NCBI GenBank assembly: GCA_965242865.1
Contig: CBDETK010000013.1
Coordinates: forward strand, 736,001-800,000
Source of the DNA: Candidatus Latescibacterota bacterium
GTDB lineage: Bacteria > Latescibacterota > UBA2968 > UBA8231
DNA length: 64,000 nucleotides
Direction: 5' to 3'
Under the pieces are notes generated by a model. The model had not been told where the DNA came from. It worked only from the letters and a program-made list of their open reading frames with translations, and did no database searches. Below are positions 42,893 through 54,643 of this stretch, one piece after another. Made by a program: the position numbers and the translations under genes. Position 1 is the first letter of the stretch; the number at the start of each line of letters is the position of its first letter.

Positions 42893-43327
42893 TTACTCCT
42901 GTCTTAGTTCATCCAAGGCGTCGCGCAGAAATGTATCCGGCAGTTGGTCCGTATGTGGATACCGCTTGCGCCGATGGTTGCCGTTCATGTTGACCGAGCA
43001 CAGGGCACCGCCATCCGATTCGCACAATAACATAACAGAACGCCGAAACCCACCGGGAACCGTGATCGCAATAACTCTCTCCGGCAGGAGTTCGACCAGA
43101 TATTGACGGGGCAATATGTCATAGATTGCTCGTAGCAGACGGTCTGCGTTGGCAATAGTCGATTCGGAAGGCCGCGCAATGCCTTTTTCGGCGGCCTCGT
43201 CGTTTATCTCGCTAAGATCGCGTAGGGCTTCGGCGAGCGGAGCGGGTACGTCTTCTTCCGTTGCGTTTTTAGAGAGGCTCGTTAAATCTTGGGTCATTTT
43301 AGAGAGGCTCGTTAAATCTTGGGTCAT
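42893..43327 (-). CDS. Hypothetical protein, putative antitoxin, copy 2
   Basis: Paralog of 43773-44207 at 880-bp offset; exact 30-bp tandem duplication at start (MTQDLTSLSK x2, 43268-43327). Confidence 0.7.
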   Translation of the reverse strand: MTQDLTSLSKMTQDLTSLSKNATEEDVPAPLAEALRDLSEINDEAAEKGIARPSESTIANADRLLRAIYDILPRQYLVELLPERVIAITVPGGFRRSVMLLCESDGGALCSVNMNGNHRRKRYPHTDQLPDTFLRDALDELRQE

Positions 43328-43767
43328 TGGTCAATGCTCGTGGAGGCCGGGCGTTCACGCCAGCGGGAAGCATTCGTCAGATCTTGGGTGTGATGTCTTT
43401 GTTTTTTCTGATCCTCCGCTGCGGAATCGGGTAGGATAATATCTGCATGGTATGGGTTGCCGGGTTGTGGAGTGGCAACCACCCGCCGCCCATTGCTTTC
43501 GGCGTCTTCAGCGGCAATGACGGCCCAGCCATAAAACTTACGGCCTCCACTACGGCCAACTGCTACCTTGTCGCCAAGCGTCGCCATCTGCTCAGGTTCC
43601 GCGAAATCAAGCCGGTCAACGGAGATAGTCACTTCCCCGCGCCGTTCGAGAAATACACGGAAGGGTGTTGTACCGCGCTCAGCTCGACGTGCCTGTGTGC
43701 TTGAAAATACGCCCCGTCCCAAAGTCTCGTTCGGAGATATGTTCTGAGGGAGGTTCGTGGGAACCAA
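43324..43767 (-). CDS. Hypothetical protein, putative ART/Tse2/RES-like fold toxin
   Basis: ETLGR, ISVDR, NPYHADI motifs giving an R-S-H pattern; tightly coupled to both neighbours. Confidence 0.55.
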   Translation of the reverse strand: MVPTNLPQNISPNETLGRGVFSSTQARRAERGTTPFRVFLERRGEVTISVDRLDFAEPEQMATLGDKVAVGRSGGRKFYGWAVIAAEDAESNGRRVVATPQPGNPYHADIILPDSAAEDQKKQRHHTQDLTNASRWRERPASTSIDQ

Positions 43768-43772
43768 CCGAT

Positions 43773-44207
43773 TTACTCCCGTCCTAGTTCACTCAAGGCT
43801 TCGCTCAGAAATGTATCCGGCAGTTGATCCGTGTGTCGATACTCCTTGTCCCGATATTTGCCGTTCATATTGACCGAGCACAGGGCACCACCGTCCGATT
43901 CGCAGAACAACATAACTGAACGCCGAAACCCACCGGGAATCGTGATCGCAATAACCCCCTCCGGCAGGAGTTCCACCAGATATTGACGGGGCAATATGTC
44001 ATAGGTTGCTCGTAGCAGACGATCCGCGTTGGCAATAGTCGATTCGGAAGGCCGCGCAATGCCTTCTTCGTCGGCTTCGTCGTTTATCTCGTTAAGATCG
44101 CGTAGGGCTTCGGCGAGCGGAGCGGGTACGTCTTCTTCTATTGCGTTTTCAAAGAGTGCGGCATCAAGAGACGCCCCAAACGTCCTGCTCGTTAAATCTT
44201 GGGTCAT
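43773..44207 (-). CDS. Hypothetical protein, putative antitoxin, copy 1
   Basis: GAAAGGAG RBS before ATG 44207; acidic helix then PS..TIANA..LL, P.G.IAI pattern. Confidence 0.7.
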   Translation of the reverse strand: MTQDLTSRTFGASLDAALFENAIEEDVPAPLAEALRDLNEINDEADEEGIARPSESTIANADRLLRATYDILPRQYLVELLPEGVIAITIPGGFRRSVMLFCESDGGALCSVNMNGKYRDKEYRHTDQLPDTFLSEALSELGRE

Positions 44208-44261
44208 AATGGCTCCTTTCACAGTTACTACGGGGGCCTTCGCTGTTTCACATACCCGTGC

Positions 44262-45443
44262 CTAGGGTGCAGTTGGGGCCTTAATCTTGTAGTCCTCCGG
44301 AACGCTAGCGGGTCTTGGACAAAAGTGTCGGAAATCGCAGGCGGCACAGGTTGCCTCATCTTGGCAGTTCGGAGACCAAGCCTGAAGAATATCGCGGCCA
44401 GTTGCTTCTGCTACGACATCTTCCTCCGCTCGACGAACAACATCATCGAAGGATGCAAGAGCACGATCAATGCTCTCTGGGGAGGCCGGAATAACTCGGA
44501 TGGCCCTACGCAGACGAAAAGCGAGCGATAGTTGGCTTGTATCCATGCCCTCCCGCCACATTCTGACAATCTGCTCATCTTGAGAGCCAACTTCTGGCAC
44601 TACGTCAGTCGAATTATTAGCCAGACCCCGCCTAATCGCCCGCATCTCTGTTCCACCGGGTGTCAACTCGTTTATGTAGATCAGAATGCCAGCAGCCACT
44701 TGAAGGGCATCGGGCTGCCGTGCTCTGAGCCAAGCGTAAGTTTGAATTTGCCAGTCTCCTTGGTCCCAGTAGGCTTCATCAGTCAAGGGGCGTCTCGCAC
44801 CTTTATAGTCCACTATAACCTCGAATTCTCCTTGCAATTTTGGATCACCTTGCAGAACGCACTGACGAATAAGATTGTCGTCGGAGGCTTCAGAGAGAGT
44901 TACGTTAGTCAGGACGTCGATAACACCGTGTACTTCATAGTTATCGCAGCGAAGGTCTTCCTCACTATCTGGCACAGGTCTTGTTCCAATCACTTTGCGC
45001 TCTGTAGAAGCGATAAGTGGAAATAAATGCCGTCTGAGCTCGTTCACCGCAACCTCAATGCGACGGTATGCCGAGTCGCGAGCATCAGCACTACGTGCTT
45101 CCTTGCCTTGTTGCCGTAAAGCATTCTCTACTAAGTCGGCAAATCTACCAATGTCGTAGTTAGCCCAGTTAGGGGAATCTTGTCGCCACTCGCGTTTTGT
45201 GCATGGCCAAGGGAAGTTAGGTGGCTGTTGGCCTTTTTGGCGTAACTCATCCCAAAAGCGATAGGCCATTTCCAAGGTGCCATGTAAAAACTCACCAAAC
45301 CAGAGCTGGACTGGTCTCGATGGAGGCAAAGCACTGCCATTGTGGTATCGATACTGTAGCCGGCAACGCAGATAGGATAGCAGGTCGCCAGTGAGCGAAT
45401 AGGATGGAACGATATGTTCCGGACGTTTGACTTCAAGTTCCAT
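44262..45443 (-). CDS. PD-(D/E)XK nuclease, RecB/AddB/Cas4-like, with probable Fe-S cluster
   Basis: YSLT..L.YLRC..QY, G.FLH..LE, HGVIDVL, IVDYKG, QIQTY, terminal CAACDFRHFCP. Confidence 0.9.
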   Translation of the reverse strand: MELEVKRPEHIVPSYSLTGDLLSYLRCRLQYRYHNGSALPPSRPVQLWFGEFLHGTLEMAYRFWDELRQKGQQPPNFPWPCTKREWRQDSPNWANYDIGRFADLVENALRQQGKEARSADARDSAYRRIEVAVNELRRHLFPLIASTERKVIGTRPVPDSEEDLRCDNYEVHGVIDVLTNVTLSEASDDNLIRQCVLQGDPKLQGEFEVIVDYKGARRPLTDEAYWDQGDWQIQTYAWLRARQPDALQVAAGILIYINELTPGGTEMRAIRRGLANNSTDVVPEVGSQDEQIVRMWREGMDTSQLSLAFRLRRAIRVIPASPESIDRALASFDDVVRRAEEDVVAEATGRDILQAWSPNCQDEATCAACDFRHFCPRPASVPEDYKIKAPTAP

Positions 45444-45469
45444 GGCCAACTCCCGTTGATGCGTTGGGA

Positions 45470-47851
45470 TTATAGAAGCAAAAATGGTGGATCAACTCGT
45501 ACAGGAGATCTGCGAGTACTATATTCTTGTCTCCACGGCCAAGTATTATCACGCCGCCAGCCCAAAGCTATGTTCGGAATTGCCTTTTGGGTGTAATTCT
45601 TTCCGGTTCCATAGAATAGGCAGCTTTCGTTTCCCACGAGCATCAGTACGGACTGTGGACGGCTATAGGCGACGTAATAGAGCCGCGCTAGGTCATCAAA
45701 AGTACGGTCCAAGCCATCACGATCACTTCGGAGTGGACCCGTTAGATGAGGCTCTACGTCATTTTCAGCTCGCACTACACTCGAAATGCGATCAGGAAAT
45801 CTCAAAAATCGCTGCATTCGATGGTTGCGCGTAAAGCGACTTCCAACATCAACGATCACTAATGGAAATTCCAATCCTTTTGCTTGGTGAATTGTCATAA
45901 ATTGCAATCTATCCCGCGGAACGCTTGGTATAATGTCTTCGTCAACATCAACCTCGTTCTCTGCAATCGGTATAAGTGCGTCGCGAACAAAACTCAATCT
46001 GCTTCTGCTTAAACGCACAGGATCGCTATTAGCAGCGGTGTTCTGTAGAAGTTGCATACCATAGGGAGATGCCATACCCGCGCTTGCAATGATGCGCGTA
46101 ATAGCCTCCAGCCATACTTGATGCTCGGGATCACGTTGAAATTCAGGCATCCAAGAGATCAACTTAAAGACAAGTTCCAGAACCGGCCAGTCTTGAGGAA
46201 AAGCATCGGTCGCCTGCCCCAACGCAGCATTTTGCCAGTCTCTGATGAAACCTCTGAGTGCAGGACCATCATTTGGGGGTGGGTTTGAGTCGACAAATTG
46301 TTGAGCACTTTGTCTCCACTGACTAAGGAAGAACCTCGCCTCGTTAGTGGGCATCACTTCACTGATGATGGTATTTTTTGGATCAATTGCCAGAAGGAGG
46401 AGACCTAAGAGAACGCTTACATTGGGAATTGTTCGCAGAGCTTGACCGCGTGGATTGAAAACTTGGAGACCGTTAGCTTTCATTTTCTCTCGCAGTGTAC
46501 CTGGAAATCTCTCCTGTGGTGCACTTTTGTAATGGTCGTACTGCTCTTCTTCAATAGAATGAGCCAAAAACACCGCGTCACCTAAGGCACCGTCCTGTGA
46601 TATCCGAATTTCCTGATCTATTGCGCCAATAGGAAAATTCCGTTGATTAAACAGCCTATTCAGAAATGCCACAAGGTCTGTTGCGAGACTCTCTGGATCA
46701 GCCCTAAACATACCTAACACGCGAATATCTTCGCTTGTCCTAGTTGCCACCACCGAAGGCTTTGGAGGCTTAATTCGTGCAGGCAAGAAATCTGGATCGC
46801 TCGTAATGTAGTCGTTATAAAACTGCACAATTTCCGGCCTTGAGCGGAAGTTTCTGGTCATGTCCACTCGACGGGTCTGGCGTCTTGTTGCTTGCTGACA
46901 ACGCTCTGCAAACTCAGTAAAGAGTTCAACCGATCCACCCCTGAACCTGTACATGGACTGATCGTCATCACCTACAATAGTCATTGACAGGCGGGCCATA
47001 TCAAGCATAGCAAAGTAAATGGCTTCCTGCAGAGGATTTGTGTCTTGATATTCATCGATTAAAATCACTCGTAATCCTTCAAGCCACTCCCTAAGCGATC
47101 CATTGGACAAACGTTGCAGAAATAGTTCCTCTAAAATCGTAAAATCAAAGACGTTTGTTTCAACCGCTCGCTGGCGATAGCGTTCCAGCATCTCGACAAA
47201 CAATTCTTGGGCTTGTCCAGATTGTGTATAACTGTTCAAGTTCACACGATCCTGTATCAAACGTTCAAGTAAGCGCTTCGCCACTTTAAGGGCCTCTCCA
47301 AGATTGCGCGGAGATTTGCCATCGAAGGTGTACCGGCTCAAAAGGATATCAAGAGTGTCTTGATTGGACTTGTACAAATCTCGAAATGCTGACCTCTTCA
47401 AAATTAGGTTACTTGCGGAGGTTTCTGCGACTATAGGCTCGAGTGCTCCCGGCAATCGGTACTCTGTCAGTGCTTGTTGGATAATACTATCCAACGTATC
47501 AATTCTGCATCGGTTAAGGTCAATCTGGGAGAGATTGATAGCAGAATCAGACTCAAGTTCTGCATAAAGGGCAGTACCCCAGTCTAGCCAGCGCGTACGT
47601 AACTCACGGGCAGCTTTCCGAGTGAACGTGGTAATCAGAATGTTTTCAGGCAGAACATTTTCTACGAAGACATACCGTAAAGCGCGAAGCACAAGAACGG
47701 TGGTCTTTCCCGAACCCGGACCAGCAACAATTTGCAGAATGCGGGCGTCCGCGTGGTTGACAGCGTCGAGCTGAGCCGCATTATCTGGATTTAGCAAATC
47801 GCGGCCAAGGCGACTGCTTACTATATCGAGAAAACGATCTTTGCTAATCAT
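45470..47851 (-). CDS. UvrD/Rep-family SF1 helicase (accessory)
   Basis: AGPGSGKT, LIDEYQD, VGDDDQSMYRFRG, NFRS, TIHQAKGLEFP, RLYYVAYSR. Confidence 0.92.
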   Translation of the reverse strand: MISKDRFLDIVSSRLGRDLLNPDNAAQLDAVNHADARILQIVAGPGSGKTTVLVLRALRYVFVENVLPENILITTFTRKAARELRTRWLDWGTALYAELESDSAINLSQIDLNRCRIDTLDSIIQQALTEYRLPGALEPIVAETSASNLILKRSAFRDLYKSNQDTLDILLSRYTFDGKSPRNLGEALKVAKRLLERLIQDRVNLNSYTQSGQAQELFVEMLERYRQRAVETNVFDFTILEELFLQRLSNGSLREWLEGLRVILIDEYQDTNPLQEAIYFAMLDMARLSMTIVGDDDQSMYRFRGGSVELFTEFAERCQQATRRQTRRVDMTRNFRSRPEIVQFYNDYITSDPDFLPARIKPPKPSVVATRTSEDIRVLGMFRADPESLATDLVAFLNRLFNQRNFPIGAIDQEIRISQDGALGDAVFLAHSIEEEQYDHYKSAPQERFPGTLREKMKANGLQVFNPRGQALRTIPNVSVLLGLLLLAIDPKNTIISEVMPTNEARFFLSQWRQSAQQFVDSNPPPNDGPALRGFIRDWQNAALGQATDAFPQDWPVLELVFKLISWMPEFQRDPEHQVWLEAITRIIASAGMASPYGMQLLQNTAANSDPVRLSRSRLSFVRDALIPIAENEVDVDEDIIPSVPRDRLQFMTIHQAKGLEFPLVIVDVGSRFTRNHRMQRFLRFPDRISSVVRAENDVEPHLTGPLRSDRDGLDRTFDDLARLYYVAYSRPQSVLMLVGNESCLFYGTGKNYTQKAIPNIALGWRRDNTWPWRQEYSTRRSPVRVDPPFLLL

Positions 47852-47881
47852 AAAATGTCCTTTAGCCTGATCTCTAATACC

Positions 47882-49600
47882 CTAGACATGCCTACCTTCT
47901 TGGATGCGTTCGTATAACATGAGCGTGTTGTGCGCTCCTCGTCTCCGGTTTCGATTGGCCCCACGGAAGATGAGGATATGGATGCCGATTCTTTGGCAAA
48001 AGGGGCAGTCGCAATTTTGCCAAGGGCGTTCTTCTAGTGTCCGACGGTATTGCCCACGCATGGACTGCATTTCACTGGACCTCGCTAGATGCTGGTCGTA
48101 GCTTACAACAGCGTCGAGAACTTCATTGACGTGGACCTCATCCCTGTCGTATCGGCATAGTAAGCTCAAAACTTCGCGTTCCTCTTGCTCCAATTGAGAA
48201 ATGTCCGCATTTGCTGCTATCAGTCGCTTGCGTGTGCGTCCGTCGCTTGTTATCGGTACTCGCAATGCCGCGTACCACTTACCATTGGTGCCGAGATAAT
48301 TCTGATCAGAGCGAAGCCACGCTTTGCGGAAGTACGTTGCGCTGTCAAAGCTATCAATTTTGAGTTCGCGGAACACATCTTGCAGTTTGGGGCGGAAAAT
48401 CCCAAACAGATGTATCCATGGTCTCTCTTTGAGTTCGTTGGCGGCAGTGATCACTGCTCGTGCAATACTCTCAATCTCGCTATCTTGCTTAGGAACAAGG
48501 CCCCCAAGTGCCAAATAGCGGTATCCGATGTCATAGTAGTGATGAACGGCTTCAGCGTATTGCTCCGGGCTGATGCCTTGTATAGTGCCAACCGGATTGA
48601 ACTGAGCCTTCCGTTTTTTCGCAGCCTCAAAGAATAACGCCGCATTTGCATGAGTGATTCGCACCCTATCTTGACGTTCCTCATCGGAAAGCCCCCTTAT
48701 TTCTCCGTTCTTGTTGATTTTTTGAACGGGAATATGGTCAACAGACGCTCCAAAGTTGAAGTCATATAACTCGTATAACGCGACCGCTTGCTCTACTGAA
48801 ATAGCTGGTTCATCGTCATTCACGTAACTGAAGGCACCACAATCGCCAAATAGCCACTGATTATCCATAAGACCAAATTGTTTGCGTAGCGGCAAAGGAG
48901 ACAAGGCACTGGCTTCGGTGCCTTCCAGCCGCCGCAAGGGGCCTTTCGATGTTCCATGCTGGGCAAGACTGACGAGGATGCCGTCGCACATTTGTTCGGG
49001 CTGCATCAAGATACAACAGTGTTGATCCTCTCTGTCTTCACGAGTTGGCCCCGAGAAGGTGTCTTGCTCGAAGTCAAAATTCGGATCCAAGAGGTCGTCC
49101 CAGTCAGGAAGGAAATAGCAGTGTCTCCCAGCACCACCGTTAACATCAGCCCTCACCCTCTGGACAGGCGGTGTGCTATTGAGAAAAGCCTTTATTTGAC
49201 TCGCTTTCTCGCCTCTGCTGCCTTGAAACGGCGTAACGGGGAGAGAAGTCCGTTTCAGGGCGGGCTCAACGGCGGGAAGATAGTCCTTTCCCAATGAAAA
49301 ATACACGGCATCGTGATAATCAGCCCACTTTTTTAGAATGGCAGAACACTCAGTAGCCTTTTCACGGGCCATAGCTGGAGTCATCCGCGAATCGTAATGC
49401 TCAATCCGCTTCAGACTTCCAAACAAACCGTATTCCGCAGAAAGAATCGCAATAGATAGACCAAGCGGCCATTGATTGTCCCGCAAGAATTTCTTGATGA
49501 CCCGATACTCAGACCCGTTGTAACGGTCAATTGCAGGAAGCCAACCATTACAGTTCCGTTTGGCCTGCGAGCAACTCAAAACGAGTAACTGTCTATTCAT
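47882..49600 (-). CDS. dpdA: DpdA-type DNA 7-deazaguanine transglycosylase with N-terminal YaaA/DUF6884-like domain
   Basis: YFLPDWDDLLDPNFDF, GDCGAFSY, SVDH, ALGGLVP, IHLFG, SFDSA, PW..CDCPFC..IGI..LIFRGANRNRRRGAHN; N-terminal LSCSQAK..PAIDRYNG..ILSAEYGL..IEHYD. Confidence 0.85.
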   Translation of the reverse strand: MNRQLLVLSCSQAKRNCNGWLPAIDRYNGSEYRVIKKFLRDNQWPLGLSIAILSAEYGLFGSLKRIEHYDSRMTPAMAREKATECSAILKKWADYHDAVYFSLGKDYLPAVEPALKRTSLPVTPFQGSRGEKASQIKAFLNSTPPVQRVRADVNGGAGRHCYFLPDWDDLLDPNFDFEQDTFSGPTREDREDQHCCILMQPEQMCDGILVSLAQHGTSKGPLRRLEGTEASALSPLPLRKQFGLMDNQWLFGDCGAFSYVNDDEPAISVEQAVALYELYDFNFGASVDHIPVQKINKNGEIRGLSDEERQDRVRITHANAALFFEAAKKRKAQFNPVGTIQGISPEQYAEAVHHYYDIGYRYLALGGLVPKQDSEIESIARAVITAANELKERPWIHLFGIFRPKLQDVFRELKIDSFDSATYFRKAWLRSDQNYLGTNGKWYAALRVPITSDGRTRKRLIAANADISQLEQEEREVLSLLCRYDRDEVHVNEVLDAVVSYDQHLARSSEMQSMRGQYRRTLEERPWQNCDCPFCQRIGIHILIFRGANRNRRRGAHNTLMLYERIQEGRHV

Positions 49601-49802
49601 GGCATTTACCTCGGCAGAAGCTCAAGAAGGTTGTTGCGATAAAAATAGGAATTATATACAACAGGGCCAAACTGGCACCAGCGGCCACATGCACGGGTGG
49701 TACGCCTTTCAGTACGCACAGCCTCTTGACGGCGATAGACTGCCCGCAGCAGCCCGTTGCTGCTCTCGGCTCAAGCAAAGGACAGATAGTAGGCATCCTA
49801 TC

Positions 49803-52706
49803 TTAGGCGTCAATCCGCGTCTTTTTGCCGCCGTGGACGCTCGGCTCGGCGCACCATTGGGCGCGCAAAATGGCGAGCGGTTCAAGGGCGGCTTCGGGCA
49901 GGTGCAATAGGTCGATCAGGACAGCGCGGTCGAGGGCTTGGCGAGCGTCGTCCCGATACGCCTCGTTAGCTGGGAGGAACTCCTTTTCCTTGAAGCTCGT
50001 AAAGATGGCTTCGGCTTGGGCGAGTTGCTCTTTGCTGAGGGCACGTGGGTCCAGAACCGTCAGACGGGGCAGTTGAGTGATTGTCAGACACGCACGGCCC
50101 TGCTGCTGTCGGGTCCCGACCCACCAGAAGGCGAGGAGGCCTAGAGTTGTGTTGGACCACAAGACGAGGGGGACGCTCCACTCGTCTTGTTCCGATATGA
50201 AGTTGGGCCATGCCCGGCCACCGATGGCTTTAGTTGGCGTAAGGCAAGCGGTGAGGCTCTGCGAGTTGATCTGAAAATCTCGGTTAAAGTGCAGCCGCGA
50301 GGCCGTTTCGTTCCAAACCTCAACCGACAGGGCATCGCAGCCGGGTCGTACCTCGCCTTCGCTATCAGGTCGGACTATGAGACTCCGTTCACGCTTGGCA
50401 TCGTGGCCCCACAACGCCGGATATTGCGGCACACCCTGAATGGGGATGATTTCAAATGGCCCTCGTGGTGTCCCATTGCTGGCTTTCCCGGCGATGTCGC
50501 GGTCGAGCAACCCTTTCTCGCCGAGTTCTCCAAGATGAGTTGTCGCCAGCGGCGCGTCGTATCCTCGCGGTAGCCGGAGCGCCCCTGCCGCCAGACCGAG
50601 GGCAGCATCCGCCAGCGTCGTTTCGCGCAGAGACGCGCACCCTCCTTGATTCAGCGGTGCTCGGATGTACGTGCCAACCGTCTCGCTGTTGCCGATGCAC
50701 AACCGACCCTGCCGAACTTGAGCCGGCAGCCGACGCACGGCCCGCGCCATCTCAAAGGCTTCCGCGATACTGCCCGGTCGATAATAAAGATTGACGAACA
50801 GCGTTTCCCCGCTTTCCCCGTTTCCCGCCTCGCGCCGCTTGTTCGCCACGACGAGGGCCTCGGCCATCCCGGTATCCGCTGAAAACGCCCGATCCGTATC
50901 TCCGTGCGCCGCAATGGTCAGCACTGCCACGTCCTCGTACTCGCGCTCCAACAACCGCCGAAAGTCCCTCCAAGAGCCGCCACTCACACACGCTGCCGGC
51001 AGCACCAGCGCGAGGACGCCACCGGACTTGAGCTTGACGTGGGCTAGGTCGATAAAGTTGGAAGCCAAGCCCGCATTGCCGTGCCCGACCGGATCGGTCA
51101 ACCGCCGCCTGATCTCGACCAGACGCTTGGACATAGCTTGTTGCTCGTCTTGGGTCGTGTTCAGTCCAGCAAACGACGGCACCGGCACCTCGGCCTTTTC
51201 GTGATTGGTGGGCCGCGTAAACGGCGGGTTCATAATCACCAGATCCGCCGTTTCGCGGGGGAGGATCATGTCTTGGCTCCCCTCGGCTTCCACATCCTCG
51301 CCCGTGCCGTGCGCCACGGTGGCACCCGTCCCAAACAGCGATGGCGCGGTGTCGTCCTCAATCAGATCGAGTGCGCCCAACGCCATAGTATGCCGCTTTT
51401 CCTGACTCTGCTGGCCGTAGGGCAGGGTGTGGACGCGGGTGTGGCCAAAGGTCGTCCCCGGATGAGCACTCGACAGGATGGACGCGGTCAAGTGCGTGGC
51501 CGCTGGCATGATGTCGGCCGCGACGAGGGCGCGTTCCATCATTTGCCGATGCAGCGTCTGATCGTCGCCGCCGGTCCGCCGATGCCGTGCCGATAGTGCG
51601 CGATACGCCGCCGACAGCAACGCACCCGTGCCACAGGCTAAGTCCGCGACTTGTAGGCCGATGAGAGCGTCCGGGTCGGACCAATCCGCGTCCGCGTCCA
51701 AACGAGCCACCGCCAACTCCCCGAGCAGAGCCGCCGACGTCGGCAGGGTGTAAAACGTGGCGAGGAACTTGCGGTCCGCGATGAGCCGTTGGAACATCCG
51801 CCCAGAAAGATCGTGCAAGGTGGTCGCGCCCAAGCCCGCTAAGTCGCTGGCCGCTTGCGCGAGGCGGTTGAGAACCGCATTGGCCGCGCCGTCGGGAATG
51901 GGTAGCAGCAAATCGGAGGCAATGCGAAAGATCGGATAGTAGTTGATGTCTTTGAGGATGTGCTGCCAGCATTTGATCAGACGGCTCTTGCTGACGTCGT
52001 TGCGCCCCGGAATCCGCAATTCGTCGATAGTGTCAATCCCGTGCGCTTCGACAATCGCGGTGTGAAAAACGAGCGCGTTGGCGACGATAGCCATGGCCAT
52101 GCGCGAGGTTTGCTCGCCATCCTCTTGATGGAGGGACCGCGCCATATTCTCCAGCGCGTGCGTGCCAGCCGTTTCGCGCAGCTTGCCAGCGGCCTCGCCA
52201 ATGCTCTGCTCCAGAATCTGCGTCCCCTCGGCGAGCAGCCGCTCGGACAGCGACACGTTCTCAACACAGCTCGCCAGATCGTCAATGCTACCGACGAGCC
52301 AGCCGGTGGCCGGCCAGCGCACGGCCCTATCCGCCGCTTGCAGCGCGTGGGTGCAATAGCGGAACTCGGCCGCTGCGATCGCCTGCTCCAAGTCTTGCTG
52401 CGGCACCTCGCTCAGGGCTTGCGGAATTTGGACGGCAATGGTTTGCTCAATCTGCGCACCTTGGTACTGCAAGAACTGCCTCAAGCGTTTGCGGGCGTCT
52501 TCTTCGACGCTGCGCGCCGGTTCAAACTCGGTTTCGAGGACGACCGGAATGCCGCCCGGCGGGCGAATGACGATGTCCGGCCGCTGCGCGGCCTCGCGGA
52601 CGACGCCCTGTTGCTCCGCCCCGGTGCGGTCGCGCCAACGCGGATGCTTGGTCCGCAGCACATTCGACAGGGCGACGTTAAAGGCGATTTCGTTGGTTCG
52701 GGGCAC
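49803..52706 (-). CDS. Type IIG-like fused restriction endonuclease / N6-adenine methyltransferase
   Basis: N-terminal RPDIVI..VLETE nuclease-like motif; FYT, DLACGTGALL (motif I), VIMNPPF (motif IV), GGVLALVLP; C-terminal TRD-like region. Confidence 0.85.
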   Translation of the reverse strand: MPRTNEIAFNVALSNVLRTKHPRWRDRTGAEQQGVVREAAQRPDIVIRPPGGIPVVLETEFEPARSVEEDARKRLRQFLQYQGAQIEQTIAVQIPQALSEVPQQDLEQAIAAAEFRYCTHALQAADRAVRWPATGWLVGSIDDLASCVENVSLSERLLAEGTQILEQSIGEAAGKLRETAGTHALENMARSLHQEDGEQTSRMAMAIVANALVFHTAIVEAHGIDTIDELRIPGRNDVSKSRLIKCWQHILKDINYYPIFRIASDLLLPIPDGAANAVLNRLAQAASDLAGLGATTLHDLSGRMFQRLIADRKFLATFYTLPTSAALLGELAVARLDADADWSDPDALIGLQVADLACGTGALLSAAYRALSARHRRTGGDDQTLHRQMMERALVAADIMPAATHLTASILSSAHPGTTFGHTRVHTLPYGQQSQEKRHTMALGALDLIEDDTAPSLFGTGATVAHGTGEDVEAEGSQDMILPRETADLVIMNPPFTRPTNHEKAEVPVPSFAGLNTTQDEQQAMSKRLVEIRRRLTDPVGHGNAGLASNFIDLAHVKLKSGGVLALVLPAACVSGGSWRDFRRLLEREYEDVAVLTIAAHGDTDRAFSADTGMAEALVVANKRREAGNGESGETLFVNLYYRPGSIAEAFEMARAVRRLPAQVRQGRLCIGNSETVGTYIRAPLNQGGCASLRETTLADAALGLAAGALRLPRGYDAPLATTHLGELGEKGLLDRDIAGKASNGTPRGPFEIIPIQGVPQYPALWGHDAKRERSLIVRPDSEGEVRPGCDALSVEVWNETASRLHFNRDFQINSQSLTACLTPTKAIGGRAWPNFISEQDEWSVPLVLWSNTTLGLLAFWWVGTRQQQGRACLTITQLPRLTVLDPRALSKEQLAQAEAIFTSFKEKEFLPANEAYRDDARQALDRAVLIDLLHLPEAALEPLAILRAQWCAEPSVHGGKKTRIDA

Positions 52707-52719
52707 GGTTCGAGAAAGC

Positions 52720-53280
52720 TCAGTCGATTTGAATGGCGTGAGCGGCTAGTTTTCCGTCCAACTCGGTGGACGGGATAATATCGACCACATCCATCATCTC
52801 TTTAGTCAATGGACTTTTTAGAAAACCTTTCAACCTGTCTCTGTCTGTCAGGTTATCCATCACCATAACGGAATCCGGCGAAGCGGCGGTCGCCACGAGC
52901 CAGAATTGAAACTTGTTCTCCGGCAGAAACGCTTTCACATCGGTCCGCGAGCTCGACAGGCGACACAAGACCAACATGGACCCGTACAGCTTGAGACGGT
53001 TTTCTTTAAGAACTTCATCGTAGAGCAAGTCAGCTTGGTCGTCGTCGTTGAGGTAATCGTATTTTTCTTTGAAGTCAGTGATTGTGCTCGCCAAGTTGGT
53101 CTCCTCGATAAGAATGACGCTTTGTTGATCGTTGCTGACCGTTACGTAGTCGCAGCACTCGCAGGTCCCGAGCTTGGCCGCACGACGCATGTTGGATTCT
53201 TTCGCCGTGCTGTCCATCCGATACGCTTTGAAGCCGCTGGCAGACGACTCTATTGACTCGACGAATTGGGATAAGGGCAT
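52720..53280 (-). CDS. Hypothetical protein, possible degenerate PD-(D/E)XK nuclease partner of the ATPase
   Basis: CCDYV....ILIEET motif; starts 1 bp after the ATPase stop. Confidence 0.55.
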   Translation of the reverse strand: MPLSQFVESIESSASGFKAYRMDSTAKESNMRRAAKLGTCECCDYVTVSNDQQSVILIEETNLASTITDFKEKYDYLNDDDQADLLYDEVLKENRLKLYGSMLVLCRLSSSRTDVKAFLPENKFQFWLVATAASPDSVMVMDNLTDRDRLKGFLKSPLTKEMMDVVDIIPSTELDGKLAAHAIQID

Positions 53281-53281
53281 T

Positions 53282-54643
53282 CTACAGCCCTTTGATGTAG
53301 AGATCGGAGAAAGGCTTCGTCAGCGACTGTTTGACCTCTGCCAGTACCGCATCCATGTCGTCGTTCCATTCGGCATCCGGCGGAAACTTATTCAACCTGA
53401 CCAACTCCCGATCTTCTGGGTTTTTCTTTACATGCACCTCAAGCCACTTGAGAATCGTCATGCTATGGGTAGAGACGACCACGTTGACTCCCTGACGGGC
53501 TAACTCAAAGAGGATCGCCGCCATCTCAACTTGCCAAGCCGAATGGAGATTGGACTCCGGTTCATCGAAAAAAAGAAAAGAGCCGCGCTCTAAGGCCCCT
53601 CGTTCAATCAACAGGGCCAGCATTCCCATATTTGCAACGCCCGCCGACGTGATGGAGAGCGGAATCGACTGGCCGTCTTTTTGAAATTCAAGATCGCCCG
53701 CTTCGCTCAGCACAATTTTTCCGCCAATCGCATCGTGCAGCCCGTTGTGGATTCCGGTGAGAGGATGGTCTATATGCGTCCTTCGGAGGGCAGCGGCTAG
53801 GTCGTAGAAGTAATCTGGGACGCCGTTCAGAGAATGCTCTAAAGGGGAACGCGAGCCGAGCTTAATCGACTCCAGAGGGTTTTTCAGTTTCCAATAAAGC
53901 GGAGACTCTAAATAGAAGACTTCGGGGAATGATTGCCCGTTCTCGACGATTTGCGGGCTGGGAATGAACTCAAAGTCCGCTTCATCTTCTTGTAATTCAC
54001 CTACTCCTTGGACGCTAAAATACAAGAAGGAATCGCCGTCCCCTTCGAACGTAAAAAAATTAGGCACTTGAAAATTTCCATATACATTCTGGCGAACCTT
54101 GTAAGACCATCCGTGGCGAATTGCCCATTCTAGGTCGCTGAAGAACTTTTCCAAATGATCTCTGATGATTTCGAGAGTGCCGTGCATATCAGATGAAGAG
54201 GCGTGGCCACCGGCTTTTCTCGTTTTAATGTCATTTTCGAGGGCGTGTAAGTGGCCCTTTATTTTTTCGGCTTCAACTACCAATGCAGGCTGCACCGCCT
54301 TGAGCGCGTCGAGTTCGCTTTGGCTCGGATAACTTGGGGGTGCCTCCTGTAGGATAGAGTTGATTTTTTTTAGCCCCTTTCTAATGGCGGACAGGGAGTG
54401 TTCTCCTCGCTCGCCATAATAGCGTTGCAAATTCAGGTCGAAGAAAGAGGTAATCTCATTAGAAAATGCTTCAAAAGACACGAAGGCGTGATTTGGGTTC
54501 CGCGCATCAAGTATCGAATACAACATCTTCGCCACGAGCGTCTTGCCGGTATTGTTCGGCCCGGCGAATACCGTGAATGGACCAACTTGGACGGTCGCCG
54601 CGTCGATTGGCCCCAAGTTCGCAATTTTCAACTGGAGGTCCAT
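53282..54643 (-). CDS. ABC-type (AAA_15/AAA_21-like) ATPase
   Basis: LKIANLGPI, Walker A GPNNTGKT, signature-like SAG, Walker B FFDEPESNLH, STHS. Confidence 0.9.
   Translation of the reverse strand: MDLQLKIANLGPIDAATVQVGPFTVFAGPNNTGKTLVAKMLYSILDARNPNHAFVSFEAFSNEITSFFDLNLQRYYGERGEHSLSAIRKGLKKINSILQEAPPSYPSQSELDALKAVQPALVVEAEKIKGHLHALENDIKTRKAGGHASSSDMHGTLEIIRDHLEKFFSDLEWAIRHGWSYKVRQNVYGNFQVPNFFTFEGDGDSFLYFSVQGVGELQEDEADFEFIPSPQIVENGQSFPEVFYLESPLYWKLKNPLESIKLGSRSPLEHSLNGVPDYFYDLAAALRRTHIDHPLTGIHNGLHDAIGGKIVLSEAGDLEFQKDGQSIPLSITSAGVANMGMLALLIERGALERGSFLFFDEPESNLHSAWQVEMAAILFELARQGVNVVVSTHSMTILKWLEVHVKKNPEDRELVRLNKFPPDAEWNDDMDAVLAEVKQSLTKPFSDLYIKGL

Follow-up and report, generated by a model that had tools for sequence, protein, structure and literature searches.

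A three-gene locus of Latescibacterota that may form a compact, DpdB-less variant of the Dpd 7-deazaguanine system

A 64,000-nucleotide stretch of a Candidatus Latescibacterota genome (assembly GCA_965242865.1, contig CBDETK010000013.1, positions 736,001 to 800,000; hereafter the window) carries, at 44262-49600 on the minus strand, three co-oriented open reading frames (ORFs) that together span about 5.3 kb. They encode a fusion of a DUF6884 domain to the DNA-guanine transglycosylase DpdA, a UvrD-type helicase and a PD-(D/E)XK nuclease. We hold with high confidence that these genes form one functional unit tied to 7-deazaguanine in DNA, and the unit has probably spread horizontally. As to what it does, we propose with moderate confidence, from comparison of sequences and gene neighbourhoods, that the trio is a short variant of the Dpd 7-deazaguanine modification-restriction system that dispenses with DpdB and with DpdD-K.

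The genes and domains of the trio are as follows.

47882..49600, minus strand: gene 1, DUF6884 (DpdC/YaaA-like)-DpdA fusion, 572 residues; ORF with NCBIfam and PADLOC DpdA matches
49166..49600, minus strand: N-terminal DUF6884 domain of gene 1, residues 1-145, with CSQAK and LSAEYG motifs
47885..49123, minus strand: DpdA DNA-guanine transglycosylase domain of gene 1, residues 160-572, from end-to-end alignment with 7ui4
45470..47851, minus strand: gene 2, UvrD/PcrA-type superfamily 1 (SF1) helicase, 793 residues; Pfam UvrD-helicase and UvrD_C
44262..45449, minus strand: gene 3, iron-sulphur (Fe-S) type PD-(D/E)XK (Cas4/AddB-like) nuclease, 395 residues from TTG; Pfam PDDEXK_1

Genes 1 and 2 are separated by 30 nucleotides and genes 2 and 3 by 20, and the GC content of the trio (0.46-0.52) lies below that of the wider flanks (0.62-0.66), as stated in the original prediction, which was made from the sequence alone and had described co-oriented genes, AT-richer than the flanks, with gaps of about 30 bp or less. 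The motifs that it quoted for gene 1, for the SF1 helicase and for a nuclease with a 1+3 cysteine arrangement are all found in the translations. Gene 3 probably starts at the ATG at 45443 rather than at the TTG, giving 393 residues and a gap of 26 nucleotides, since most of the homologues listed are 393 residues long. The genome measures 6.0 Mb (93.6% complete, 6.8% contamination), its closest relatives are Latescibacterota assemblies, and the window lies on a 5.6-Mb contig (C13, 736001-800000).

Sequence and structural features of the three proteins

The C-terminal part of gene 1 is assigned to DpdA by several comparisons. Residues 162-568 match the NCBIfam DpdA model NF041059 at 346 bits (cut-off 200), the PADLOC DpdA model scores 330 bits, and residues 160-567 align end to end with the solved DpdA of Salmonella Montevideo (7ui4, E 1.8e-65). 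The translation carries FGDCGAF, IHLFGI, DSFDS, CDCPFC and RGANRNRRRGAHN, and the zinc site CxCxxC..H is retained. Among the residues to which section 30 of PMC10164549 assigns catalytic and base-binding roles in the Salmonella enzyme, Asp95, Phe99, Asp130 and Asp256 are identical in gene 1 (D253, F257, D288 and D419), and His181, Leu236 and Phe265 are replaced (by Q341, F399 and W428). D253, D288, D419 and the zinc cysteines are present in 52 of 52 DpdA family members. The best 120 of the 1265 protein clusters that hold homologues of gene 1 (E up to 0.001) are 59-99% identical to it, with a query coverage of 86-100% that reaches 96-100% in 117 of these 120. As to a phage origin of gene 1, one pattern scan of viral contigs gave no relative.

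The N-terminal domain is more divergent from its named relatives. Residues 7-127 score 27.0 bits against Pfam DUF6884 (PF21818; E 5.7e-6), a little short of its cut-off of 30, and there are weak matches to PADLOC PDC-M57A (25.7 bits), to DpdC (14.6 bits, E 0.0036) and to YaaA. The CxxxK and LSAxxG motifs and the YaaA-like 'cantaloupe' fold that passages of PMC11701544 give as features of DUF6884 can nonetheless be traced: both motifs are kept (CSQAK, LSAEYG), and the predicted model of the domain (pLDDT 91.3) matches YaaA (5caj) with a Z score of 11.3 and a root-mean-square deviation of 2.7 over 140 aligned residues, and AF0587 (2q07) with a Z score of 10.3, the next match being at 6.5; Foldseek agrees. 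Across 30 fused and free-standing DUF6884 copies C10, S11, Y27, G29, S54 and A55 are invariant and K14, D28 and L53 nearly so. A free-standing homologue also reaches the Pfam DUF5591 cut-off (26.2 vs 26), and DUF5591 is the core of the archaeosine synthase ArcS2 (Cui et al. 2023). DpdC is itself the DUF6884-bearing protein of the Dpd system, according to passages of the GATOR-GC preprint (10.1101/2025.02.24.639861), and full-length DpdC in other loci scores 274 bits against the PADLOC model on which the gene 1 domain scores 14.6. The description of gene 1 as a YaaA/DpdC-like-DpdA fusion was thus right, given the DpdA score, the DUF6884 motifs, the YaaA-like fold matches and the identity of DpdC as a DUF6884 protein.

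In gene 2 the helicase motifs AGPGSGKT (Walker A) and DEYQD are intact. The protein matches Pfam UvrD-helicase (156.9 bits) and UvrD_C, its best NCBIfam match is AddA and its solved relatives are UvrD, AddA and PcrA; of 54 homologues, 53 keep the Walker A lysine K49 and all 54 keep DEYQD. Gene 3 has the nuclease motifs VDYK and QIQTY together with an N-terminal C29 and a C-terminal C368-x2-C371-x5-C377 (Cx2Cx5C), and it matches Pfam PDDEXK_1 (53.8 bits) and PADLOC Cas4 (E 1.4e-6). Compared by sequence with solved structures it gives no match at E up to 1; its predicted model (pLDDT 85.1) finds Fe-S nucleases of the RecB family, the top Foldseek matches being ACE1 Cas4-family proteins (9iac/9iab), AddB (4ceh_B), AdnA, Cas4 SSO0001 and Dna2. 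E53, H56, E60 and D178 are present in 88 of 88 nucleases, D214-Y-K216 in 87, and the Fe-S cysteines C29, C368, C371 and C377 in 87, 86, 86 and 87, respectively. The near-invariance of catalytic positions in all three enzymes points to purifying selection. A complex prediction for gene 1 with gene 3 gave a score of 0.00, which counts neither way.

Conservation and layouts of the unit

The case for a functional unit is carried by its recurrence, presence and absence being set here by tblastn thresholds, with contig ends hiding genes. With the fusion as query, 14 genome loci were fetched, from Latescibacterota, Chloroflexota, Acidobacteriota, Spirochaetota, Bacillota and Thermomicrobiota, and both partners lie within about 6 kb of the fusion in ten of them. 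With the nuclease as query, 80 metagenome loci were fetched, and the helicase stands directly upstream of the nuclease in 75, the other five having less than 150 nt of upstream sequence. DpdA is found in 47 of these 80 loci and in 23 of the 25 whose flanks reach 4.3 kb or more on the upstream side and 4 kb or more on the downstream side; L068 and L101, which lack it, have a fragmented helicase. Of 168 genomes of the host phylum, nine have the fusion and six the nuclease; these six are among the nine, and in each of them the two genes share a contig, about 3-9 kb apart. These linkage counts (75/80 for the helicase, 23/25 for DpdA) rule out a chance juxtaposition, and the triad, for which the original prediction had proposed a survey in other genomes, is conserved across phyla. 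Pairwise-identity matrices for 38 loci are correlated as well (nuclease-helicase r 0.95, nuclease-DpdA 0.72, helicase-DpdA 0.67; each Mantel p 0.001), although kinship among the loci inflates such correlations. The spread is patchy, the fusion being present in 2 of 30 other genomes of the genus, and a patchy distribution together with a low-GC cassette is the signature of mobile defence.

The helicase-nuclease pair comes in three layouts. The fusion type seen in the window (DUF6884-DpdA fusion, helicase, nuclease) is represented by 35 loci, 31 of which have both partners, and tblastn finds DpdB in 0 of these 35. In a split type, the helicase and nuclease accompany a free DUF6884 protein of about 159 residues and an unfused DpdA; all four parts are present in seven metagenome loci, and every locus having a separate DUF6884 gene is without a DpdB match. 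In a third type, the same helicase and nuclease stand with full-length DpdC (274 bits), DpdB, DpdA, a second DpdB, QueC and QueE; ten metagenome loci show it, of which three run into a contig end, and so does plasmid pB41S5 of Bradyrhizobium sp. 41S5, where dpdA, dpdB and queCDE bear these names in RefSeq and the partners are annotated as 'DEAD/DEAH box helicase' and 'PD-(D/E)XK nuclease family protein'. In a quick tree built from 52 DpdA domains, a single branch sets each layout apart (SH-aLRT 99 for the fusion type, 89 for the split type and 100 for the third type), which fits a single origin of the N-terminal fusion followed by horizontal spread. DUF6884 and DpdA thus occur as separate genes and fused in both orders: at L082 10698-12434 a reverse fusion of 578 residues has DpdA first and DUF6884 at the C-terminus, and on the tree it takes a long branch outside the clade of N-terminal fusions, which fits an independent fusion event.

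Genes for the precursor also lie close by, QueC, QueD, QueE or a Vut_1 (YhhQ-type) transporter adjoining 12 of the 35 fusion-type loci. Eight of the 35 add a HerA ATPase and a NurA-like protein of 633 residues, a pair that lies between fusion and helicase in six of these loci and replaces the helicase-nuclease in L015 and L016. The 633-residue protein has no Pfam match, and its NurA-like label is a lead only: the Atlas groups it with NurA-bearing clusters, in which NurA is found on 14-18% of members. The pair is absent from the window and its genome. The epithet 'minimal' in the original prediction needs a qualifier, since about a quarter of the fusion-type loci have this addition.

Several loci depart from these layouts in ways worth recording. 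A HerA remnant of 46 residues at L011 11761-11898 suggests that the pair was lost there. At L008 16101-17247, also from Latescibacterota, the helicase gene is split by about 1.1 kb, its halves each 79% identical to gene 2. In L009, L014, L018, L043 and L045 the fusion is followed by a far more divergent UvrD-type helicase, 28-29% identical to gene 2, and in L009 and L018 the nuclease match is only weak; this suggests that a second helicase clade pairs with the fusion. On a Picosynechococcus sp. PCC 73109 plasmid (L105 6646-18754, NZ_CP014001.1) the helicase-nuclease pair is followed by a hypothetical gene of 384 residues and, about 5 kb past it, by a 307-residue 'tRNA-guanine transglycosylase' between two DEAD/DEAH helicases. 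L094 and L099, with short, weak matches to tRNA-guanine transglycosylase (TGT) on the opposite strand, resemble L105, and the arrangement may be a fourth layout.

Proposed mechanism, known systems and rival explanations

In the reading that we favour, the DpdA half of gene 1 would swap selected guanines in the cell's own DNA for preQ0, as its homology and intact catalytic residues suggest, the preQ0 presumably being supplied by the host queuosine pathway. The fused DUF6884 domain, a reduced relative of DpdC, YaaA and the ArcS core, would then modify the base once it is in place, the most likely reaction being a nitrile-to-amide conversion that yields dADG, a step suggested by the fusion and by the known role of DpdC. 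No DpdB would be used. The UvrD-type helicase and the Fe-S Cas4/AddB-like nuclease would form an AddAB-like motor-nuclease that degrades unmarked DNA and takes the place of DpdD-K, a role to which their conserved linkage points. In the canonical system DpdA, DpdB and DpdC are sufficient for modification in vitro, and DpdC converts dPreQ0 to dADG. The original prediction had likewise proposed a compact modification-restriction unit drawing on host preQ0, which is supported by the conservation of the trio, the third-type dpd loci, the conserved catalytic residues and the host QueC, QueD and QueF matches, every in-silico test that was run being in agreement; its idea of a split helicase-nuclease standing in for DpdD-K gains from the presence of the same pair beside canonical dpdC-dpdB-dpdA-dpdB-queC-queE genes.

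The host genome could provide the precursor. Beyond the limits of the window it holds one match each to QueD and QueF and two to QueC, and a tblastn search with one queE query likewise matched outside the window, in line with the earlier statement that preQ0 genes are missing from the window itself. QueC is also found in five of five other fusion-bearing genomes, which is uninformative because it is found in 13 of 14 control genomes. As had been noted for the window, DpdB is not seen: model NF041060 has no match in the 93.6%-complete genome, its control being silent in 14 of 14 control genomes too, and the same model does detect DpdB elsewhere (439 bits on L067). The sole DpdC model tried, PDLC02818, has no match in the whole genome. 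Nor does any DpdD-K model appear among the PADLOC rows for the trio and ten neighbouring ORFs (35438-56089; best 25 of 51 hits for the helicase), in which DpdA and DpdC are the only Dpd models, as the original prediction had it.

The canonical Dpd system of Salmonella enterica serovar Montevideo (dpdA-K) shares with the trio the DpdA equivalog with its catalytic Asp pair and zinc site, a DpdC-related domain, preQ0 dependence and, in what is presumed to be the restriction half, helicase and nuclease components. It differs in having DpdB, a ParB-like DGQHR ATPase, a separate DpdC where the trio has about 145 residues fused to DpdA, and DpdD-K in place of one UvrD-type helicase and one Cas4/AddB-like nuclease; passages of PMC5699537 and of the GATOR-GC preprint put it at 11 genes and about 20 kb, compared with three genes and about 5.3 kb here. 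The GATOR-GC survey was blind to the fusion type because it required dpdAB. Third-type loci such as pB41S5, which have dpdAB, would fall among the islands that it describes as 'lacking the restriction operon', and the text passages of that preprint name no UvrD or PD-(D/E)XK partner, which its supplementary Pfam tables may list. With AddAB, AdnAB and RecBCD the trio has in common an SF1 UvrD-like motor and a RecB-family nuclease with 1+3 Fe-S cysteines; unlike in those complexes, the motor and nuclease are separate small proteins, a second helicase-like subunit is missing, and the company they keep is an enzyme that modifies DNA, where the known complexes go with recombination genes. The BREX-related capture system (BRC; HerA plus TGT, PMC12839542) also places a TGT-family enzyme in a defence locus without DpdB or DpdC, with a HerA translocase in some loci, but its seven parts are built on PglZ, DUF6079, STAND and DUF4007, none of which was found here, and it has no UvrD/Cas4-like pair. 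Phage DpdA modules likewise combine DpdA with preQ0 genes, but they protect phage DNA, whereas the DpdA of gene 1 falls in the bacterial equivalog. Phage DpdAs are not known to require DpdB. For bacterial DpdA, joint action with DpdB is described by Cui et al. (2023).

None of the named systems compared fits the trio. Gabija was rejected: GajB models score up to 110 bits on the helicase, but its partner is a PD-(D/E)XK nuclease without a GajA hit. A CRISPR-associated Cas4 was rejected too, TIGR00372 scoring 19.2 bits against a cut-off of 65 and the ten neighbouring ORFs matching no cas model. PADLOC v2 puts a name to the DpdA part alone; at its gene level, the hits listed are to DpdA, PDC-M57A (for the DUF6884 part), the generic GajB and RTasHel, and Cas4. 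A full-text search, with supplements outside its scope, found no paper with DpdA beside a UvrD/Cas4-like pair or with a DUF6884-DpdA fusion; a prior description is possible.

Several points weigh against the reading of the trio as a DpdB-less Dpd variant. Activity of a bacterial DpdA without DpdB is assumed, since Salmonella DpdA is inactive without DpdB and ATP according to passages of PMC10164549. The DUF6884 domain scores beneath the Pfam cut-off (27.0 vs 30) and, at about 145 residues, has less than half the length of DpdC (about 300 residues), so that its chemistry may differ from that of DpdC. Three of the 14 fusion loci (L015-L017) are without the helicase-nuclease and L014 has only the divergent helicase match, so that for the fusion the association is strong without being obligate. 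One of the 23 DpdA-positive loci, L094, owes its place to a short match, 28% identical and on the opposite strand. The loci come from related organisms, many from the same campaigns, and are not independent. Support is comparative only, modification and defence being predicted for all fusion-type loci, and discrimination between marked and unmarked DNA by the helicase-nuclease is assumed. One tentative idea, which we regard as doubtful, is that the 7-deazaguanine mark serves as a Chi-like 'self' signal that stops or switches off motor-nucleases of the end-resection type. Both effector pairs, UvrD with the Cas4/AddB-like nuclease and HerA with the NurA-like protein, would then be processive motor-nucleases acting from ends or nicks, and defence would operate without a sequence-specific endonuclease. 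On the same idea the DUF6884 domain could also be the reader of the modified base and, since it stands closer to the minimal ArcS-core/YaaA fold than to complete DpdC, the final base might be other than dADG.

It is also conceivable, if unlikely, that the helicase and nuclease belong to the writing machinery, the UvrD motor replacing the DpdB ATPase in opening the DNA and the nuclease processing or repairing transglycosylation intermediates. The fusion-type and split-type loci, which never have DpdB, are consistent with such a division of labour, and passages of PMC10164549 raise a helicase-like role for ATP hydrolysis by DpdB. However, the pair is kept in loci that already have two DpdB genes along with DpdC and DpdA, and DpdA, DpdB and DpdC alone are enough for modification in vitro. 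The near-invariance of the D..DxK/QxxxY motifs and Fe-S cysteines in 88 nucleases and the addition or swapping in of the HerA and NurA-like pair, as is typical of effectors, also speak for a role in restriction rather than in writing.

A type IV-like logic, in which modified phage DNA has its 7-deazaguanine detected or cut out by the DpdA fold and is passed on to the helicase-nuclease, was the alternative offered in the original prediction. It has precedent in the Dag1 and Dag2 glycosylases, which attack deazaguanine-modified phages according to passages of a bioRxiv preprint (10.1101/2025.10.29.685425), and base removal is the first step of DpdA chemistry in the description given in PMC10164549. 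We consider it quite unlikely and disfavour it because the family is linked to genes for preQ0 synthesis and uptake (QueC/D/E, YhhQ) and to DpdB and DpdC, a linkage that makes sense only for writing a mark; the DpdA equivalog score with a full transglycosylase site and the fused DpdC-like domain, which implies maturation of an inserted base, argue in the same direction. A role in DNA repair or maintenance, by exchange and resection of damaged guanines, seems very improbable to us. In its favour, proteins of the UvrD and AddB kinds are classic components of repair, and passages of PMC11701544 connect YaaA with peroxide stress and count YfjM, a DUF6884 protein, among the binders of DNA lesions. 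The patchy distribution (9 of 168 genomes of the phylum), the setting as a low-GC insert among defence-like genes, the occurrence on plasmids and the linkage to preQ0 genes sit poorly with it.

If the trio is indeed a DpdB-less Dpd variant, it would have implications beyond this genome. According to a 2025 review (PMC12707154), the restriction associated with ADG 'has not been further explored', and a three-gene form with one helicase and one nuclease would make the reading of deazaguanine marks far simpler to study. A bacterial DpdA working without DpdB would bear on the purpose of the DpdB ATPase, and the DUF6884 domain would gain a testable job. The same helicase-nuclease pair flanks canonical dpdABC-que operons, and it may be present in islands that were scored as incomplete, 'lacking the restriction operon'. 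Cultured carriers (Bradyrhizobium sp. 41S5 with pB41S5, Picosynechococcus sp. PCC 73109 and Ammonifex thiophilus SR) make tests feasible.

Neighbouring genes and related loci

The remaining features, in the window and in other loci, are the following.

49651..49678, minus strand: promoter-like candidate (GTGCCA-16-TATAAT), some 50 nt before gene 1, agreeing with the consensus at 10 of 12 positions
within 49803-54643, same strand as the trio, upstream: methyltransferase-like ORF, 967 residues; PADLOC mad2 and type II methyltransferase hits; GC 0.58-0.65
within 49803-54643, same strand, upstream of the trio: ORF of 186 residues
within 49803-54643, same strand, upstream: AAA_15 ATPase, 453 residues, HEC-02A/PD-T4-4A-like; GC 0.48-0.52
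42893-44222, co-oriented, starting 39 nt after the nuclease: three small ORFs of 144, 147 and 149 residues; no Pfam or PADLOC match
L006 11637-15361; also L007-L010, L015, L016, L023 and L102: HerA and 633-residue protein pair
L025 11552-12121, L044 1061-1696, L049 10682-11245, L067 6885-7553 and six more loci: unnamed protein of about 190 residues

The evidence for the promoter-like site is weak, since the region holds nine such sites compared with 6.6 +/- 3.1 in shuffles. The setting in a defence island, as originally described, stands in so far as defence-like neighbours (methyltransferase-like, AAA_15) are present, but none of them recurs beside the trio elsewhere. The 967-residue, 186-residue and AAA_15 ORFs, and likewise the three small ORFs at 42893-44222, were rejected as parts of the unit because they have no homologues in the other loci. 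A secreted GSDH-like gene and a MiaB-like gene delimit a mosaic island, in which the ORFs at 49803-54643 are likely to be defence cassettes distinct from the trio. The 149-residue ORF beside the nuclease matches only unnamed Atlas clusters.

An unnamed protein of about 190 residues recurs beside the system in ten loci covering all three layouts, though not in the window. Several of its segments are hydrophobic and membrane-like, the motifs MY..W.N..R and W..RN are conserved, and Pfam gives no match; it could be a transporter or an effector. In the host genome, the second QueC match lies in an open frame of 444 residues (G000:C13:2567252-2567863, L002), about 6 kb from the QueF match, and may be a fused or extended QueC.

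The same genome has, outside the window, a second co-directional cluster that combines DUF6884 with a TGT-family protein (G000:C13:3033233-3043169; L103 3233-13169). An HmaB-like DUF1156 methyltransferase (941 residues, PADLOC 1005 bits) is followed by a DUF6884 protein of 195 residues that is 35% identical to the N-terminus of gene 1, by two unknown ORFs (360 and 306 residues) and, at the end, by a BrxD-like ATPase (395 residues), the TGT-family protein (392 residues, Pfam TGT 80.8 bits) and a PD-T4-4A-like AAA_15 ATPase. This cluster may be another deazaguanine-linked defence locus.

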